A stretch of DNA of 64,000 bases from assembly GCF_003334815.1 (NCBI RefSeq), contig NZ_QOWO01000020.1, one strand, 5' to 3'. The DNA comes from Escherichia coli (lineage in GTDB: Bacteria > Pseudomonadota > Gammaproteobacteria > Enterobacterales > Enterobacteriaceae). Position 1 is the first letter of the stretch; each line of letters begins with the position of its first letter. The notes beneath the pieces were generated by a model, which was not told where the DNA came from, searched no databases, and was given only the letters and a program-made list of their open reading frames with translations. Below, piece by piece: positions 907-10,970 of the stretch. Both the position numbers and the translations under genes were made by a program.

Positions 907-919
907 CGCTTAAATTGCA

Positions 920-955
920 CAAAGGCTGCACACAGGCAGCCTTTGCTATTTTTTA
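920..955 (+). terminator. intrinsic terminator downstream of yeaQ
   Basis: stem caaaggctgc/gcagcctttg followed by ctatttttt. Confidence 0.6.
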
Positions 956-964
956 GAGGTGACG

Positions 965-1039
965 TTACCACCATCCCAGCTCAGTGCCGAGTACGACAAT
1001 AATCGCCACACCCATCATAATAATCGTTGTTTTTTTCAT
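965..1039 (-). CDS. yoaJ: small membrane protein YoaJ, 24 aa (MKKTTIIMMGVAIIVVLGTELGWW)
   Basis: manual translation of minus strand; below the ORF-track size cutoff; matches remembered K-12 small protein. Confidence 0.6.
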   Translation of the reverse strand: MKKTTIIMMGVAIIVVLGTELGWW

Positions 1040-1041
1040 CT

Positions 1042-1140
1042 TTATGCTCCCGGGGCAGCATAGCCGCCAATAAAAAACCATGCTAAAAATACGACCGCTG
1101 TAATGAAGATTACAACCGGAAAAATAATACCGATTCGCAT
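1042..1140 (-). CDS. yoaK: small membrane protein YoaK, 32 aa (MRIGIIFPVVIFITAVVFLAWFFIGGYAAPGA)
   Basis: manual translation of minus strand; lies between yeaP stop and yoaJ. Confidence 0.6.
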   Translation of the reverse strand: MRIGIIFPVVIFITAVVFLAWFFIGGYAAPGA

Positions 1141-1172
1141 GTTATCACCAATCAAAAGGATGTGAATACGCC

Positions 1173-2198
1173 TCAGGAATGTAGCGCTGGATGCGCGACA
1201 AAAGGTGTTTTCTGTTTGTGTTTTTTCTCCTGATACATCGCAATATCGGCAGCATGCAGGGCACTGTCTGCATCGGTTGTTTCAGGATCGACTTCTACTA
1301 TGCCAAGACTGGCACCGGGATAATACAAATCAACATCACCTAAGTGATATTCTCCACGTATTTGCTGCTGAATGCGTTCTCGCAGCGACGAAATATCCGC
1401 ATTCTCGTTGTTTAGTGAAACAACTAAAAACTCATCACCGCCGAGACGACCAATAACTTCGCCATTTTGCTGGAGCGTATTAAGGCGCTCGCCAACCTGA
1501 ATGAGAAACAGATCGCCACTATTATGACCAAAACGATCATTGATTAATTTGAAGTTATCCAGATCGATAAACGCGATCATTATCTTATGGTTAAGATGCC
1601 GGGCGAGGGAAAACAGTGTCGTCAGATTTTCAAAAATCGCCCGCCGATTCGGTAGCCCGGTTAACGAGTCGGTATACGATTGCGCAATCAGCGCAGCATT
1701 GGCTTCGCGCAGCTGTTCAACCAGTGCCTCTTTTTGAATATATTGTGCAATCAGTCCGGCGAATAACTGTAAAACCTGTTCCGCGCGTTCACTCCACTGG
1801 CGCTTCTCACTGCTGGCGGCGCAAAGCGTGCCATAGAATGATCCATCCGGTAAGTGAATTGGCGTGCTCAGAAATGTGGTGATGCCAAGATTGCGTGCCG
1901 CAATACAGTCACCCCAACGGTCGGGGACTTCATCGCTGAAAAAGCAGTTTTCATCAATGGCGCGTTTGCATAACGAGTAATCCCACGAGACGGTAAAATT
2001 CTCCGGGATGTACATTTTCTGGCTGTTACGGGCAAACATAATATGCTGCAGGCGCGCTTCGACATCCACTTTGGTCAGGTAGGTTGATTCCATATCAGTG
2101 ACCATTTCCAGCATCTCCAGAAGCTGTCGGACCAGACTTTCCAGTGACTGTTCTTTGGCAAGGGATTGCGAGACGCGGGCGATAATCTGATCTGACAC
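1173..2198 (-). CDS. yeaP: diguanylate cyclase, GAF-GGDEF (DgcP), 341 aa with GTG start
   Basis: ORF 1173..2327 contains RLGGDEF; start trimmed to GTG at 2196-2198 to match remembered 341 aa protein (MSDQIIARV...). Confidence 0.85.
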   Translation of the reverse strand: MSDQIIARVSQSLAKEQSLESLVRQLLEMLEMVTDMESTYLTKVDVEARLQHIMFARNSQKMYIPENFTVSWDYSLCKRAIDENCFFSDEVPDRWGDCIAARNLGITTFLSTPIHLPDGSFYGTLCAASSEKRQWSERAEQVLQLFAGLIAQYIQKEALVEQLREANAALIAQSYTDSLTGLPNRRAIFENLTTLFSLARHLNHKIMIAFIDLDNFKLINDRFGHNSGDLFLIQVGERLNTLQQNGEVIGRLGGDEFLVVSLNNENADISSLRERIQQQIRGEYHLGDVDLYYPGASLGIVEVDPETTDADSALHAADIAMYQEKKHKQKTPFVAHPALHS

Positions 2199-2380
2199 GG
2201 AACAACTCCAGGATACGGCGGGTAAATGCTGATTATTTAATCTTTGCAGGCATGATAAAACATCATCAACAAAGATGAAACAAGACGTAATATGTTTTGA
2301 GTGAATGTAATAAAAATAGTGCTGCAAAACAAAACGATACCGCGATACTCTAATCTTGGATAAATATGTGAGATCAATAA

Positions 2381-2635
2381 ATGAAAATTATCAGTTTTGT
2401 TCTGCCTTGCTTGCTGGTCCTGGCTGGTTGTTCAACCCCTTCTCAGCCAGAAGCACCTAAACCGCCGCAGATTGGTATGGCAAATCCGGCGTCGGTCTAT
2501 TGCCAGCAGAAGGGCGGGACGCTCATTCCAGTGCAGACAGCGCAAGGGGTCAGCAACAATTGCAAATTACCGGGCGGTGAAACGATTGATGAATGGGCAT
2601 TGTGGCGGCGTGACCATCCGGCTGGTGAAAAATAA
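2381..2635 (+). CDS. yoaF: DUF333 lipoprotein YoaF
   Basis: ORF track 84 aa; signal peptide with lipobox LAGC. Confidence 0.8.
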   Translation: MKIISFVLPCLLVLAGCSTPSQPEAPKPPQIGMANPASVYCQQKGGTLIPVQTAQGVSNNCKLPGGETIDEWALWRRDHPAGEK

Positions 2636-2656
2636 CCGCCGGATGCTGTACTAAAA

Positions 2657-3004
2657 TCACAAGCTACGTAGCCAGTCGGCCAGCACCAGCGCATGGTTCT
2701 GCGTGGTGTTTTTTGCTGAGTAGAGCAGGGTCAGCGGCTGTTTTTTGGCGATGTCCGCCAGCCGCTTTCCTTCTTGCTCGTGTTGCGCCAGTTCTGCAAG
2801 ATATTGCTCGCGAAAGGTTGCATAATCGACGACTTCGCCGTGAAAGGCTTTGCGCAGTTCCGTTGACGGCGTGATTTCTTTATCCCACTCATCAAGGGCT
2901 AAATCGGTTTTTTTGATACCGCGCGGCCAGAGGCGGTCGACCAGTATGCGATAACCATCGCTCTGTTCAGCCGGATCATAAACGCGTTTGCACTGAATAT
3001 TCAT
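2657..3004 (-). CDS. yeaO: DUF488 protein YeaO, 115 aa
   Basis: ORF 2657..3025; start set at internal Met (MNIQCKRVYD...). Confidence 0.8.
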   Translation of the reverse strand: MNIQCKRVYDPAEQSDGYRILVDRLWPRGIKKTDLALDEWDKEITPSTELRKAFHGEVVDYATFREQYLAELAQHEQEGKRLADIAKKQPLTLLYSAKNTTQNHALVLADWLRSL

Positions 3005-3058
3005 CGTGTTTGTTCTCCCTTTCACGCATGATTTGTTACGTCACTATAGCACCGGATA

Positions 3059-4240
3059 TTAGCGAATTTCTTTGTCTCTCCCGGCGCAAAGTCCGAAAAT
3101 CGCCATCAGTAGTGAAAGTATGGCAACACCCATAAGTGGTACAGACCAGTTACCGTTAGCATCGTGTATTTTACCCATCAGCGGCGGCCCACAGGCTGCC
3201 AACAAATACCCGACGGATTGTGCCATCCCCGAGAGTGCCGCCGCCTGATGCGCAGAACTAGCCCGCAGACCAATGAACGTCAACCCCAGTATCATTGTTG
3301 CGCCGGAACCAAAACCGAAAAGCAGAGTCCAGGTGATCGCGTGCGCTGGCATAAAGCAGAGCCCAACCGCGCCCACTGCGCACATCAAGGCAACGAACGC
3401 TGCAATACCACGCTGATCTTTCACATGATGTAAGAAAAGTGGGATCAGCAAACCGGGTGCTGCTGTGGCTAGTTGCAGCAAACCATGCAGTGAACCCGCC
3501 TGTGCTTCGCTATAGCCGTGACTGATGAGGATCGCCGGAAGCCAGCCAATAATCACGTAATAGACCAGTGAGTTGATCCCAAGAAACAATGTGACCTGCC
3601 AGGCAAGCGGCGAACGCCAGATACCCCGAGTATGTAAGGCGCGCGAGGTACTCAAATTTGCATGTTGTTGACTTCGCCACTGTGGCAGCCATAAAAAAAG
3701 AGCCAGCAGAGGAAAACACATCAGCATGAGCAACGCGCCTTGCCAGCCAAAACCGTTCAAAGCCAGCGGCACGACCATAGCCGATCCCAGTGCCGCTGCA
3801 GCTCCCATTGTCAGGGAATATGCGCCGGTAAGTCTGGCGACGGAATGAGGGAAATCGCGTTTAATTAATCCTGGCAGTAAGACATTGCCTAATGCAATCC
3901 CACCGCCAATGACCGCTGTACCGCCAAATAATAAGTAAGGCGAAGGGAGAGAGCGAATTGCGATACCAGCACAGATCAAAAGTAACGCGGCAAACAGGCT
4001 ACGTTCCATACCAAAACGTCGCGCTACCGGGGCAGCCAAAGGTGAGATTAGCGCAAAGGCCAATAATGGCAGGGTGGTCAATAAGCCGGTTTGCGCTGTC
4101 GTCAGCGAGTAAGCGGAACGAATCGTATCCAGTAACGGTGCTGCGCCGGTAAAGGTGACGCGTAATGTTGTGGCAATCATCAGAATGCCAGCGATAAGGA
4201 CAATCCTGTTTTTGCCGCTTAATGAAGTTGAACAGGTCAT
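3059..4240 (-). CDS. yeaN: MFS transporter (2-nitroimidazole exporter NimT)
   Basis: ORF track 393 aa, multiple hydrophobic spans. Confidence 0.85.
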   Translation of the reverse strand: MTCSTSLSGKNRIVLIAGILMIATTLRVTFTGAAPLLDTIRSAYSLTTAQTGLLTTLPLLAFALISPLAAPVARRFGMERSLFAALLLICAGIAIRSLPSPYLLFGGTAVIGGGIALGNVLLPGLIKRDFPHSVARLTGAYSLTMGAAAALGSAMVVPLALNGFGWQGALLMLMCFPLLALFLWLPQWRSQQHANLSTSRALHTRGIWRSPLAWQVTLFLGINSLVYYVIIGWLPAILISHGYSEAQAGSLHGLLQLATAAPGLLIPLFLHHVKDQRGIAAFVALMCAVGAVGLCFMPAHAITWTLLFGFGSGATMILGLTFIGLRASSAHQAAALSGMAQSVGYLLAACGPPLMGKIHDANGNWSVPLMGVAILSLLMAIFGLCAGRDKEIR

Positions 4241-4336
4241 ATGCTTCTCATTGTTACAAACGAGGCTGTACCTTACCGTTTTTATTGTTATGTTGAATCA
4301 AGCTAAAATGACAAATTATCGCTAAGTTCGGACAAA

Positions 4337-5158
4337 ATGATGCACAGGTTGAATCTCAATGGCTATGAACCCGACCGACACCATGAAGCCGCGGTCGCAT
4401 TTTGTATTCACGCCGGAACGGATGAGTTAACCAGTCCTGTACATCAGCACCGCAAAGGACAGCTGATACTGGCGCTACATGGTGCAATTACCTGTACGGT
4501 GGAAAATGCTTTGTGGATGGTGCCGCCACAATATGCGGTTTGGATACCGGGCGGGGTGGAACATAGCAATCAAGTAACAGCTAATGCTGAACTCTGTTTT
4601 CTGTTTATCGAACCCAGCGCAGTGACAATGCCGACAACATGTTGCACATTGAAAATATCGCCCTTATGCCGGGAATTAATTTTAACCCTGGCAAACAGGA
4701 CGACGACTCAGCGTGCTGAGCCAATGACCCGCAGATTAATTCAGGTCCTGTTTGATGAACTCCCTCAGCAGCCACAACAACAGCTGCACCTGCCCGTTTC
4801 TTCTCATCCTAAAATCCGCACGATGGTGGAGATGATGGCGAAAGGGCCTGTCGAGTGGGGGGCATTGGGGCAATGGGCTGGCTTTTTTGCGATGAGTGAA
4901 CGCAATCTTGCCCGACTGATAGTAAAAGAGACGGGGTTGAGTTTTCGCCAGTGGCGTCAGCAGTTACAGCTGATTATGGCGCTTCAGGGATTAGTGAAAG
5001 GCGATACTGTACAGAAAGTTGCTCATACGCTGGGGTATGATTCAACAACGGCCTTTATTACTATGTTTAAGAAAGGCCTGGGGCAAACGCCAGGCCGATA
5101 TATTGCGAGATTAACTACTGTTTCCCCACAATCAGCGAAACCAGACCCGCGGCAATAA
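4337..5158 (+). CDS. yeaM: AraC-family transcriptional regulator NimR
   Basis: ORF track 273 aa, divergent from yeaN; C-terminal AraC-type HTH region. Confidence 0.85.
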
Positions 5159-5561
5159 GCGGCCCAACCGGTACGCCGCGAAACAGCGCTACGCCTAAAA
5201 CAGTGCCTACCAGCAGCCCGGCGACCAGTTGCGGCTGGCTGCCCATTAACGTCACGCCGCGCCCACCCAGCCAGGAGACAATCACGCCTACTGCAATCGC
5301 CACCAGTGATTTCCAGTTCAGAAACGAGTGAATCAAGGTTGAGGGCGGTAGCGTCCCGCTGGCGATGGGGGCCATAACGCCAATCGTCAGAATGATTATC
5401 CCGATACTTAGCCCCTGTTTTTCAATCCACGGAAAAAAGGTGCTTAACGGTGTGACGCGGACAATGATTAACACCAGAATTGAAACGGCGACAGTGGTGT
5501 TATGACTGATAAAGCCCAGCGCAGCTAACCCGAGCAGGATCAGCAAAGTGACATCAAACAT
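5115..5561 (-). CDS. yeaL: DUF441 inner membrane protein YeaL
   Basis: ORF track 148 aa, highly hydrophobic; 3' end overlaps yeaM convergently by 44 nt. Confidence 0.8.
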
Positions 5562-5730
5562 CGTGGTTTCCTTGCCAAAAAATAATAAGCCTGCTTACTT
5601 TACGCTTGCTGCAGGAAGGAAGTAGAAAATCTTTACGTTTTTTGCATAAAAAATCAGGCGAACTGTCATCAAACTGCCATTTGTGCACGCTAACAATAAC
5701 GTGAAAACAGCTATCTCCCGGGGGCATGCT

Positions 5731-5835
5731 ATGAACGATCAAATGTTTGTCGAGACACTGATTATCACGTCATCGTTTTTTGCCATTGCTGTTGTACTGG
5801 TTTTGTCCGTTCTTCTTATCGAACGGACCGGCTAG
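5731..5835 (+). CDS. yoaI: small membrane protein YoaI, 34 aa ([34 protein letters not shown])
   Basis: manual translation; below ORF-track cutoff. Confidence 0.6.
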
Positions 5836-6339
5836 TTACGCAGTGCGGCGGAAATTGACCAGTTCTGGTTGCGCAATGCGCAAATAATCCGCGGTTTTCA
5901 AAATAACGGATTTATCCAGCATGCCTGCATTGAAGGCGATTTCATCAAATCGTTCGAAGAGTAGAGGGTCGGCAACCAGTTTGAGTTTTGGATGGAAGCT
6001 GAAAGGGGGGATCGCGCCGAAGACACAGCCTGTGAGTTCATCGACTTCCGCCGGGCTGGCCAACGAAGCGCGTAATCCGCCTATATGGCTGGCGAGTTGG
6101 CTCAGATCGGCCTGTTGATCGGCTGCGAGGATCGCCAGAACATGTTGATTTACGCCATTGCCTTTGACTTTACATACCAGTGCCTTAGCACCCTGGCCTA
6201 GAGCGGTGCCACGAATTTCTGACACCGCTTCACATTTACCTACCGCTTCATGGGTAACGACGCGGAAGTCAGCACCTTCTTGTGATAATAAAGCGATTAA
6301 CCGCTGATGCGTCACGCTTCCTTTAGCCATTTCAGTCAT
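5836..6339 (-). CDS. yeaK: YbaK/ProX-type aminoacyl-tRNA deacylase YeaK
   Basis: ORF track 167 aa. Confidence 0.85.
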   Translation of the reverse strand: MTEMAKGSVTHQRLIALLSQEGADFRVVTHEAVGKCEAVSEIRGTALGQGAKALVCKVKGNGVNQHVLAILAADQQADLSQLASHIGGLRASLASPAEVDELTGCVFGAIPPFSFHPKLKLVADPLLFERFDEIAFNAGMLDKSVILKTADYLRIAQPELVNFRRTA

Positions 6340-6381
6340 TTCACGCTCCTGAGATTACAAGCAAACAACCACAGAAGGTTA

Positions 6382-7872
6382 TCATGAACGGCTGTTTTTG
6401 TTCTGCTTATTGACATATAAACGCTCATCGGAAGCTTTATACGCATCATGTAACGTATCGTTTTCTTTCATCGCGTAAATACCGGAAGAGAAGCCGATCT
6501 CTTTCTGCGGCGCGATATGTTGCAGACGTTTTTCGATACGTTCAGGCAGTTGTGCTGCAATTTGCGGCGTCGAATCGACAAGAATGATGCAGAATTCATC
6601 GCCACCGAGTCGGATGGCATAATCACTTTTACGAATCGACTGTTTAATCGCCTGAGCTAATAACGTAATCGCTAAATCCCCCTCCTGATGACCGAGGGTG
6701 TCATTTATTTGCTTTAACTTGTCCATGTCAATAGCAATAAACATCACCGAAGAACCGGATTGCACCAGTTTCTGCAACCGCTGCTCCAGTTCAGGGGTTA
6801 AAATTTTGCGATTATACAGTCCAGTCATCGCATCACTAATATTTTCTCGCGACACATTTTGGTATAAACGGAAGTGCATCCGCACCATATTCAGCAAAAT
6901 TAACGCCGTCAAAATCCAGAACAGAACGCTTTTCCACGAAGACGTGATAAAGTAAAGAATATCAATGGATAACGAGACACGAATGCCGCCCGGTAAGTCA
7001 TGGACGTAACTGACATACTGGAACAGATTATCTTCGCTCTGGTTGATGATAATGTCGCGCCCCGAATCGGTATCGGTTAGCGTGACATTGAGAAAACGCC
7101 AGAGGAGAGGGCGGTCATGAGTATAAAAGATATTCCGCAGATTGTTTTTGTTAATATCCAGCAGCACAATCCCTTTTAGCTGCCCTGCGACATATACCGG
7201 CGTCAGCAAACTCATCACGTTCTGTTTAGTACGCTGATCCTGGTAAATGCTCGACAATACGGTACGCCCGGTAAATACCTTTTCAATATCTTTGCGATCG
7301 ATGCCAATACTTCCTGACTGCAGGAAGGACCAGTTATTCATCGCAAAGTATTCAACATTAACCGGCTCATAAAAATAGACATAGCGGTCATTGAGATCGA
7401 GATAATAGTGAAATTTCTCTTCGGCCATCCCAAGACCTGAACCGTAATCATCCTGGTGGCGGTTGCCTTCCACTGCCTGATCAAAAGCGGGTAATAGTGC
7501 TGCAGCTTCCACAATTGTGTCGCAGTCAGTGGATGCGGTTTGTAGTGTGCCGCGTAAGCCCGGGTATTTATGGGCAGTCAGGTTTAAGCCATGGGTGTTA
7601 TTGGCAGACTCAAAAGCCTCGCAGATGGCGCGCCGCTGTTCTGGCGACACTTCCGACTGCTCAGCAGCGAGAGCGCGCATCACATGCGCGGCAATACTCT
7701 GATTCTGATACTTATCATAAAGAAAGGAGGAGTCTGCTTTCTGCACGATATAGCGCAGATAGGCACTCATTGCTCTGTCGCTGGCGACAAGTTCAAAAAT
7801 AAGGAAGGAAGATGTCAGCACAATGACACTTGCGGCGATAAAATGCCGGAGCATTCTATGGTGCAATTTCAT
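6382..7872 (-). CDS. yeaJ: membrane diguanylate cyclase DgcJ, intact GGDEF, 496 aa
   Basis: ORF 6382..8052 contains RLGGDEF; start set at internal Met (MKLHHRMLRHF...). Confidence 0.85.
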   Translation of the reverse strand: MKLHHRMLRHFIAASVIVLTSSFLIFELVASDRAMSAYLRYIVQKADSSFLYDKYQNQSIAAHVMRALAAEQSEVSPEQRRAICEAFESANNTHGLNLTAHKYPGLRGTLQTASTDCDTIVEAAALLPAFDQAVEGNRHQDDYGSGLGMAEEKFHYYLDLNDRYVYFYEPVNVEYFAMNNWSFLQSGSIGIDRKDIEKVFTGRTVLSSIYQDQRTKQNVMSLLTPVYVAGQLKGIVLLDINKNNLRNIFYTHDRPLLWRFLNVTLTDTDSGRDIIINQSEDNLFQYVSYVHDLPGGIRVSLSIDILYFITSSWKSVLFWILTALILLNMVRMHFRLYQNVSRENISDAMTGLYNRKILTPELEQRLQKLVQSGSSVMFIAIDMDKLKQINDTLGHQEGDLAITLLAQAIKQSIRKSDYAIRLGGDEFCIILVDSTPQIAAQLPERIEKRLQHIAPQKEIGFSSGIYAMKENDTLHDAYKASDERLYVNKQNKNSRS

Positions 7873-8052
7873 GATAAATGGCACTCCTTCGGTTAGTGAA
7901 ACGAGAAAACCAGATAAAGTTCGATTGCGGCCTGGCACAGGGGCGCTAATTATACTCATCTCTGCGCCGCTGGGGAGGGGAAATTTAGGGGTAATAGTAA
8001 TAAATTGTATGCAAAAGCCACGCAAAAAGCATGGCTCTGAATATTTTTGCAC

Positions 8053-9528
8053 TTAAATATGATGAATAATCACTTTGTTGCCCCCCTCGCTTTTCGCTTC
8101 GCGTAAGGCTTTATCTGCTTCCGTCATGACAAGCGAGATATTACGCGTGTCACCCGTTGAAAAAACCGTGCCAATACTGATGGTCATTTGTTCAGGAACA
8201 TCATATCTGTTACTAAAGCCGGTCAGGAGTTCGACATTTTTACGCATACGTTCCGCAATGATTTTTGCCTGGGCACTATTGAGTTCGGTAAATAGCAAGC
8301 CAAACACCTCACCCTCCAGTCGCGCTAAAATATCATCGGGGCGGATGCTTTGCTGGATAATATCGACAATTGAAACCAGCACTTTATCACCCACACGATG
8401 TCCCCATTGGGCATTGATGCGTTTGAACTGATTAATATCAACCAGCATGACACAGAAGTCCTTAACAACAGGTCGCGACAATAATGACTCTACGCTGTTG
8501 AAAAAGTAGCGCCGATTATAAATATTGGTCAGCACATCATGAACTGCCAGTTTGCTGGAGAGTTGCAGCTCCTGAAAAATGTTATAAATCAGAAAAGACA
8601 CAACAAACAGTTTACTGGAAACTTCAATCCCGCGACTGATATACCAGATAGTATAATTATACTCATCCAGAGTCAGTAGAAGTAAGTTGCAGCATAGCGA
8701 TGCCAGACATAATAATGCTATTAACGGCCATAGTTCGCTGGCTAATCGTGTGCGCATGATAATAAAGAACAGTAAAAATGCCCACAGACAAACCAATATT
8801 TTTGTATAGTTGATTCCCCAGGTCGCAGTATGGTTGTCCGGACAGTAATCGACGACATACAAAGAATAGTCAGCGTTATAACTGCTCAGATTGTGTGCCA
8901 GAAGGGGAAAAACTAAAAAAGGGATCAGCGCCAGCAACAGGATTCCCGTTTTTTTCTTATTGTTGTCAAGGATGTTGTCTTTTCCATAACAAAAGAGCGC
9001 CAGCGAGGTTAAACAAATAAAACTGAGTTGGCGGAAAATATAGAAAATAGAAACATCATTCGACTTTGTCTGGATCAGTGTACTGCCGTTAATTGGTTTA
9101 TGGATAATTACAATGGTTTCAACTAAATAGATAAGGCCACTTAAAAATGCAAGGCTTAAAATGAGTGTTGGTAAAATTTGTTTGTTAGTGAAATATTTCA
9201 TTAACATGAAAAGAAAAATGACGGCGTTAAGGAAAAACAAAGCCACAACAACCATCAGGTAATTCATCTGTGGGATGAGTTTTACATTTGTGTTTTCGTT
9301 ATATAAGGTAGTAATGCAAAATAAAATTAACGTCAGCAATAAACTGAAAATAAAAAAGCTTTGAGCTTTTAATTTTTGTGTACCCATAGAAACCATAAAA
9401 AGGAGAGCAATGTGAGTGCTGGATTTTATTGATGGCAGAGATATATAGTTTTGACCAGGATCAATTTTCGTTAACGATAAAAAATATTTAAAGAATAACC
9501 CCATGGAAATACGTGTTGACTGAATCAT
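8053..9528 (-). CDS. yeaI: membrane GGDEF-domain protein with degenerate active site EGEVF
   Basis: ORF track 491 aa; motif ARLEGEVFGLLF sits where GGDEF is expected. Confidence 0.85.
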   Translation of the reverse strand: MIQSTRISMGLFFKYFLSLTKIDPGQNYISLPSIKSSTHIALLFMVSMGTQKLKAQSFFIFSLLLTLILFCITTLYNENTNVKLIPQMNYLMVVVALFFLNAVIFLFMLMKYFTNKQILPTLILSLAFLSGLIYLVETIVIIHKPINGSTLIQTKSNDVSIFYIFRQLSFICLTSLALFCYGKDNILDNNKKKTGILLLALIPFLVFPLLAHNLSSYNADYSLYVVDYCPDNHTATWGINYTKILVCLWAFLLFFIIMRTRLASELWPLIALLCLASLCCNLLLLTLDEYNYTIWYISRGIEVSSKLFVVSFLIYNIFQELQLSSKLAVHDVLTNIYNRRYFFNSVESLLSRPVVKDFCVMLVDINQFKRINAQWGHRVGDKVLVSIVDIIQQSIRPDDILARLEGEVFGLLFTELNSAQAKIIAERMRKNVELLTGFSNRYDVPEQMTISIGTVFSTGDTRNISLVMTEADKALREAKSEGGNKVIIHHI

Positions 9529-9674
9529 TTTTCCGAATGATTGTTTTCTGGAACTAAATTATGTAAAGGTTATGCTGTCATATTTAAAGCGATTGTAAGC
9601 TAATGTATGTAATAAATGAGATAATTTACAGTAAGCTAAAAATCAGCCAGGCGATAATGACCTGGCTGATAGTT

Positions 9675-10970
<1,296 letters not shown>

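Follow-up and report, generated by a model that had tools for sequence, protein, structure and literature searches.

The locus analysed here, in which a gene for an AraC-family regulator and a gene for an MFS transporter diverge from a short common control region, raises the question of where the regulator acts, whether it represses or activates the transporter gene, and which signal and which cargo the pair serves. In the window, i.e., the whole stretch of 64,000 nucleotides of Escherichia coli DNA that was analysed, the transporter gene nimT (yeaN, b1791) occupies positions 3059..4240 on the minus strand and the regulator gene nimR (yeaM, b1790) positions 4337..5158 on the plus strand. The 96-bp spacer between them (4241..4336) is AT-rich, with 34% GC compared to 49.6% across the whole window. 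Taken jointly, the observations are very probably best explained by the nimR-nimT locus in which a NimR dimer would bind a conserved block of this spacer, repress its own gene and control nimT from there.

Identity and Genomic Context of the Locus

The ORF listing reproduces exactly the gene limits and the 96-bp gap of the original prediction, which had also equated yeaM/yeaN with NimR/NimT. This assignment stands: NimR, NimT, and the spacer are 100% identical to those of E. coli K-12 MG1655 (b1790/b1791), and RefSeq annotation of MG1655 agrees, naming the products "DNA-binding transcriptional repressor NimR" and "2-nitroimidazole exporter." The identity of NimR to b1790 extends over 273 of 273 residues, and the flanking genes match as well, so orthology is backed by synteny. 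When window positions 913–10000 were compared with MG1655, one base was found to differ: window 3611 has C where the same strand of MG1655 has T. The change is synonymous in nimT and is the only difference within the pair itself. Judged by this comparison, the source of the window is a very close relative of K-12, MG1655 itself being excluded by base 3611. The MFS and AraC family assignments and the identity to MG1655 are far beyond chance. The region is thus the already described, named, and experimentally studied nimR-nimT pair of E. coli K-12, and there is nothing new in its identity.

The locus is a nearly constant part of the species. A megablast search with window positions 2600–5700 as the query detected it in 5415 of 5426 complete E. 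coli genomes, annotated as nimT and nimR. The neighbours are those of MG1655, with yeaO, yoaF, and dgcP on one side and yeaL, yoaI, yeaK, and dgcJ on the other. Diguanylate cyclase genes bracket the locus (window 1173–2327 and 6382–8052), dgcP on one side and dgcJ on the other, with cdgI farther out. An Rfam scan with E-values up to 1 gave nothing relevant, its single JUMPstart match lying inside yeaL and far under threshold. Scanning of 2950–5700 for terminators produced three terminator-like matches, a number not above that in shuffled sequences. On the minus strand, window 5075–5096 holds a terminator-like hairpin (GGCCTGG...CCAGGCC) with a T-rich tail, just downstream of the yeaL stop codon; it falls within the stretch of nimR coding for the second helix-turn-helix, which is conserved.

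Insertion sequences are found within the nimR-nimT locus in at least 9 of the 5415 matching genomes. In natural E. coli isolates, nimR is interrupted by IS1 in WCHEC050613 and by IS4 in 675SK2 (L009 2112–2867 and L010 2274–3693, respectively), and nimT is split by IS1 in other top matches. Selection for derepression was considered as a cause of these insertions and rejected: the elements strike both nimR and nimT, in different isolates, and hence give no sign of selection.

The NimT Transporter

The 393-aa product of nimT, translated from an ATG codon, matches Pfam MFS_1 (6.6e-24) and is assigned to the CynX/NimT subfamily by the NCBIfam model TIGR00896, which it matches over all profile positions (1–355 of 355) with 501.2 bits against a curated cut-off of 406. 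CynX belongs to the same subfamily, but NimT scores 135.2 bits against the cyanate-transporter model PRK09705, well under the cut-off of 312, and hence is not assigned to CynX by this model; moreover, in contrast to CynX, it is encoded outside any cyn operon and is paired with an AraC-type regulator. Its hydropathy profile has 12 separate peaks, six on either side of a central loop near residues 187–215, as expected for a twelve-helix transporter, this helix count being taken from a crude Kyte-Doolittle scan and not from a dedicated predictor. A sequence search of the PDB with NimT returned no match.

The NimR Regulator and its Sensor Domain

The 273-aa NimR, whose ORF also opens with ATG, combines an N-terminal cupin sensor domain with a C-terminal double helix-turn-helix. 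Its Pfam matches comprise HTH_18 (1.8e-18, residues 180–257), HTH_AraC, AraC_binding (6.8e-5), and Cupin_2 (2.5e-4). The C-terminal domain of approximately 100 aa with two helix-turn-helix motifs places the protein in the AraC/XylS family, and the N-terminal cupin ligand-binding and dimerisation domain places it in the AraC-like subgroup. NCBIfam has no NimR-specific model, and all 17 matches of NimR to its models are far under their cut-offs; in a sequence search of the PDB, NimR retrieved generic HTH domains only.

The AlphaFold model of NimR (mean pLDDT 93.5, pTM 0.87) contains a beta-barrel at residues 19–106 and seven helices between residues 158 and 260. Its best fold matches are full-length ToxT, Rns, and CsvR and the N-terminal domain of AraC; the sensor domain of RhaR is matched as well. 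The N-terminal fold matches the AraC N-terminal structures 2arc and 1xja, with about 13% identity in the fold alignment, and the DNA-binding part matches the DNA-binding domains of GadX and AraT. The barrel also matches metal cupins, e.g., quercetin dioxygenase and oxalate decarboxylase.

Among 1.84 billion cluster representatives searched, 395 relatives of NimR were recovered at E < 1e-30, and 85 of 110 family members match AraC_binding. Among 100 full-length members with about 30–58% identity, four residues are near-invariant, namely, H36 (95%), H38 (97%), Q42 (93%), and H76 (99%). At the sequence level, they make up the patterns HxH(x)3Q(x)6G and PxG(x)2H, both motifs of the cupin metal site, except that Gln replaces the Glu usually found there. 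This His/Gln motif may mark the effector site of NimR, which is a testable idea and nothing more. A cysteine-based redox sensor was rejected as a lead in favour of the His/Gln site, because the cysteines are only partly kept family-wide: C53, C87, C102, and C103 are invariant in Enterobacteriaceae but are partly lost in the wider family, where C102 is retained by 74% of members and each of the other three by 15–42%.

In E. coli, nimR opens with two ATG codons (MM..., window 4337–4342). The second, at 4340, aligns with the start in five of six other genera, and for this reason the true start codon could be at 4340; Klebsiella also has two ATG codons.

Conservation of the Divergent Arrangement

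Homologues of NimR with 68–77% identity were identified in Salmonella, Citrobacter, Klebsiella, Kluyvera, Enterobacter, Raoultella, Pluralibacter, and other genera. For comparison we used six loci from six of these (Salmonella, Citrobacter, Klebsiella, Kluyvera, Enterobacter, and Pluralibacter), making seven genera with E. coli. The divergent layout of regulator and transporter genes that had been described for this DNA is kept in all six: the regulator diverges from an MFS gene of 391–396 aa across a spacer of 98–107 bp. Identity to the E. coli proteins is 69–75% for NimR orthologues and 75–81% for NimT orthologues, and the Salmonella and Klebsiella MFS partners, the two that were tested, both score above the CynX/NimT cut-off.

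More distant members of the NimR family are also divergent from transporter genes, which extends the pairing of regulator and transporter past Enterobacteriaceae. For a member with 50% identity the divergent partner is an AaeAB-like efflux operon, for a member with 45% identity a CynX/NimT-like MFS gene, and for a paralogue situated beside a member with about 40% identity again a CynX/NimT-like MFS gene. A distant regulator of the family (about 40% identity) is divergent from a Pyridox_oxase_2 gene, which is pyridoxamine-phosphate-oxidase-like (L013 2247–2828). Bacteroides Nim proteins, which confer nitroimidazole resistance, have this fold. Only one such case was seen, and it may be a coincidence.

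Two further features of the locus vary between genera. The tail-to-tail overlap of nimR (plus strand) and yeaL (minus strand) is 44 bp long in E. coli (window 5115–5158) and only 17–21 bp in Salmonella, Klebsiella, Kluyvera, and Pluralibacter, since NimR in these four genera does not have the last ~10 residues present in E. coli and Citrobacter. Directly downstream of nimT, Citrobacter, Klebsiella, Kluyvera, Enterobacter, and Pluralibacter (L004 1471–2178, L005 1494–2186, L006 1453–2160, L007 1500–2207, and L008 1483–2190) carry a glutamine amidotransferase-like gene (PF00117), which E. coli and Salmonella do not have in this place.

Promoters and the Candidate NimR Operator

A consensus promoter scan of 2950–5700 gave zero sites, compared to 3.2 expected by chance, and a looser hexamer scan was then used. 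For nimR, a start site with a 22-nt 5'UTR has been mapped (Kim et al., 2012, supplementary file 2; PMC3415461); the upstream string given there ends with ...AAAATGACAAA, which places the start at window 4315 on the plus strand. The hexamer scan agrees with this position, predicting a candidate −35 box TTTATT (4281..4286) and, 17 bp further, a candidate −10 box TAAAAT (4304..4309), 6–11 nt upstream of the mapped start. The first three T of the −35 box (4281–4283) are invariant in seven genera.

On the opposite strand, the prediction for nimT consists of a candidate −10 box TAAGGT (4270..4275), in which positions 1, 2, and 6 (TAnnnT) do not vary among the seven genera, with no good −35 box. A candidate nimT ribosome-binding site GAGAA (4245..4249) is likewise invariant in seven genera; apart from it, the only minus-strand invariant positions in the variable half of the spacer are 4275, 4274, and 4270. 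In the start-site table of PMC3415461, the b1790 row is followed by the b1793 row, with no row for b1791 (nimT) between them.

Conservation of the spacer is strongly uneven. In the alignment of seven spacers, mean column identity is 94% in a 39-bp near-invariant block (4296..4334), which overlaps the nimR promoter and leader, and 69% in the 55 bp proximal to nimT (4241–4295). The block has the sequence AATCAAGCTAaAaTGACA...ATCGCTAA....GGACA and includes, on the plus strand, a pair of 17-bp units that follow the pattern ATC-N10-GACA, ATCAAGCTAAAATGACA at 4297..4313 and ATCGCTAAGTTCGGACA at 4318..4334, which stand in a 21-bp register. Across the 64 kb of the window, the two units in combination turn up a single time, and 100 shuffles yielded none; the combination has the corresponding position in each of the seven genera and is absent from three distant loci. 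We infer that the units are the half-sites of NimR and that the block is a candidate NimR operator. At that, the block also holds the nimR −10 box, the leader, and the probable ribosome-binding site, and part of its conservation needs no operator; the GGA of the second candidate half-site may double as the nimR ribosome-binding site. A search of the spacer for inverted repeats was negative, and the ungapped direct repeats TTCTCATTGTTA and TTTTTATTGTTA, 34 bp apart, were rejected as an operator, since they fall in its less conserved half. In the genomic SELEX papers of the Ishihama group, the yeaM/yeaN spacer is listed as the only target of YeaM, renamed NimR, and nimT is described as the divergently transcribed transporter gene (PMC5934670; PMC4797297).

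The candidate sites resemble the araI1-araI2 sites of araBAD in consisting of two 17-bp direct-repeat units in a 21-bp register beside a promoter with a weak −35 box. The likeness to the AraC system extends to the regulator, as AraC also combines a cupin sensor and dimerisation domain with a double helix-turn-helix and its gene, too, is divergent and overlaid by its own sites (for NimR, by the candidate sites). Unlike AraC, NimR is named a repressor by databases and keeps the cupin HxH..Q..H motif.

Proposed Regulation of nimR and nimT

In the mechanism we propose, a NimR dimer would bind both ATC-N10-GACA units in 4296–4334. Relative to the nimR start at 4315, the units cover positions −18 to −2 and +4 to +20, and because of this span bound NimR is expected to block its own promoter, i.e., to be autorepressing. 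The UniProt entry for NimR gives negative regulation of both nimT and nimR itself. On the nimT side, the same units would adjoin the −35 region of the candidate promoter or reach into it, and nimT would be controlled from there: if the TAAGGT promoter is real, nimT transcription starts near 4263 and the units are situated at about −34 to −50 and −55 to −71. Following the product name in RefSeq and EcoCyc, ligand-free NimR would repress nimT, and binding of a ligand in the cupin domain would relieve the repression.

The sign of the control of nimT is stated inconsistently, as RefSeq has "repressor," whereas NimR is an activator of nimT according to two secondary papers (PMC7355843; PMC11619374). 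The positions of the units at nimT fit both occlusion of the −35 region and AraC-like activation, and the sequence does not decide between them. It is conceivable, though doubtful, that NimR is mainly an activator of nimT in the manner of AraC at pBAD, with a liganded dimer contacting RNA polymerase at a promoter that has no usable −35 box; NimR would then repress only its own gene, and repression of nimT by ligand-free protein would reflect a dual regulator that has not been induced. The distances of the units from the candidate nimT start speak for such activation. A placement of this kind is the standard layout of AraC/XylS-family activators, as at araI1-araI2. Further points on this side are the poor −35 box and the two papers that use the word activator, and the lack of a nimT start listed beside that of nimR in PMC3415461 suggests that nimT may be silent when uninduced. 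However, RefSeq names the MG1655 protein a repressor, both statements of activation cite the same primary paper second-hand and may be errors, and the nimT start is only predicted; a site overlapping the −35 region fits occlusion equally well. A dual, ligand-switched role of NimR is possible.

Physiological Role of the Pair

Loss of nimT has been reported to sensitise cells to 2-nitroimidazole. In EcoCyc curation, nimT encodes a drug efflux transporter and nimR controls 2-nitroimidazole resistance (PMC5210515). The description of NimT as an exporter in the original prediction holds at the level of RefSeq and EcoCyc annotation; as a statement of function it is less secure, since it rests on a drug-sensitivity phenotype and is set against a rival proposal of L-cysteine uptake and a modest effect on ornidazole sensitivity. 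NimT is treated here as a putative 2-nitroimidazole efflux pump, annotated as such and described as such in secondary literature.

The rival proposal comes from Yamazaki et al. (2020; PMID 32217026), who are cited in the review PMC10821248 for the participation of YeaN in L-cysteine import and for a 50% increase of L-cysteine production upon yeaN deletion. On this basis it may tentatively be suggested, with low confidence, that the physiological task of NimT is transport of a natural small molecule, possibly import of L-cysteine or a related compound, and that the 2-nitroimidazole phenotype is a side effect. Apart from the results quoted in that review, this suggestion is consistent with three observations: in a transporter-knockout screen, disruption of nimT changed ornidazole sensitivity only modestly (PMC9405208); the nearest characterised relative in the subfamily, CynX, is a small-metabolite carrier (135 bits to PRK09705); and the pair belongs to the conserved core of Enterobacteriaceae and is not a mobile resistance gene. 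On the other hand, RefSeq and EcoCyc annotate NimT as a 2-nitroimidazole exporter (PMC5210515), and a study of cysteine import in E. coli does not mention yeaN or nimT (PMC7373191).

The effector entry for NimR is blank in Table 1 of the 2021 list of single-target regulators (PMC8249747), in agreement with the earlier remark that the natural inducer is unclear. A scheme that joins the two alternatives above appears rather unlikely: NimR would be a ligand-switched AraC-type dual regulator that senses a natural signal through its cupin HxH..Q..H site, possibly with a bound metal, and activates nimT from about −42/−63, and the substrate of NimT would be a physiological metabolite, not 2-nitroimidazole. 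The signal in such a scheme could be a nitro-aromatic, thiol or cysteine-related compound. Finally, that nimR and nimT are mere neighbours with no regulatory connection is most improbable and close to refuted, for the arrangement and the spacer block are kept in seven genera, genomic SELEX gave this spacer as the sole NimR target, and distant family members (45% and about 40% identity) also diverge from CynX/NimT-like MFS genes.

A control region from which NimR would repress its own gene and act on nimT agrees with the organisation of local regulators and efflux genes in E. coli, where a regulator gene adjoining the transporter gene it controls is classified as type A (PMC8249747). Within this group, NimR differs from other local efflux regulators in being neither a TetR- nor a MarR-type repressor, and, unlike the small global activators of the MarA/SoxS/Rob type, it is a single-target AraC protein of full length that carries a cupin domain. 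As a named single-target regulon of E. coli K-12, the locus matters little beyond housekeeping. The operator candidate, the position of the nimR start, the ambiguous geometry at nimT, and the cupin His/Gln motif are none of them surprising, and they make the questions of the NimR signal and the NimT cargo easy to test.
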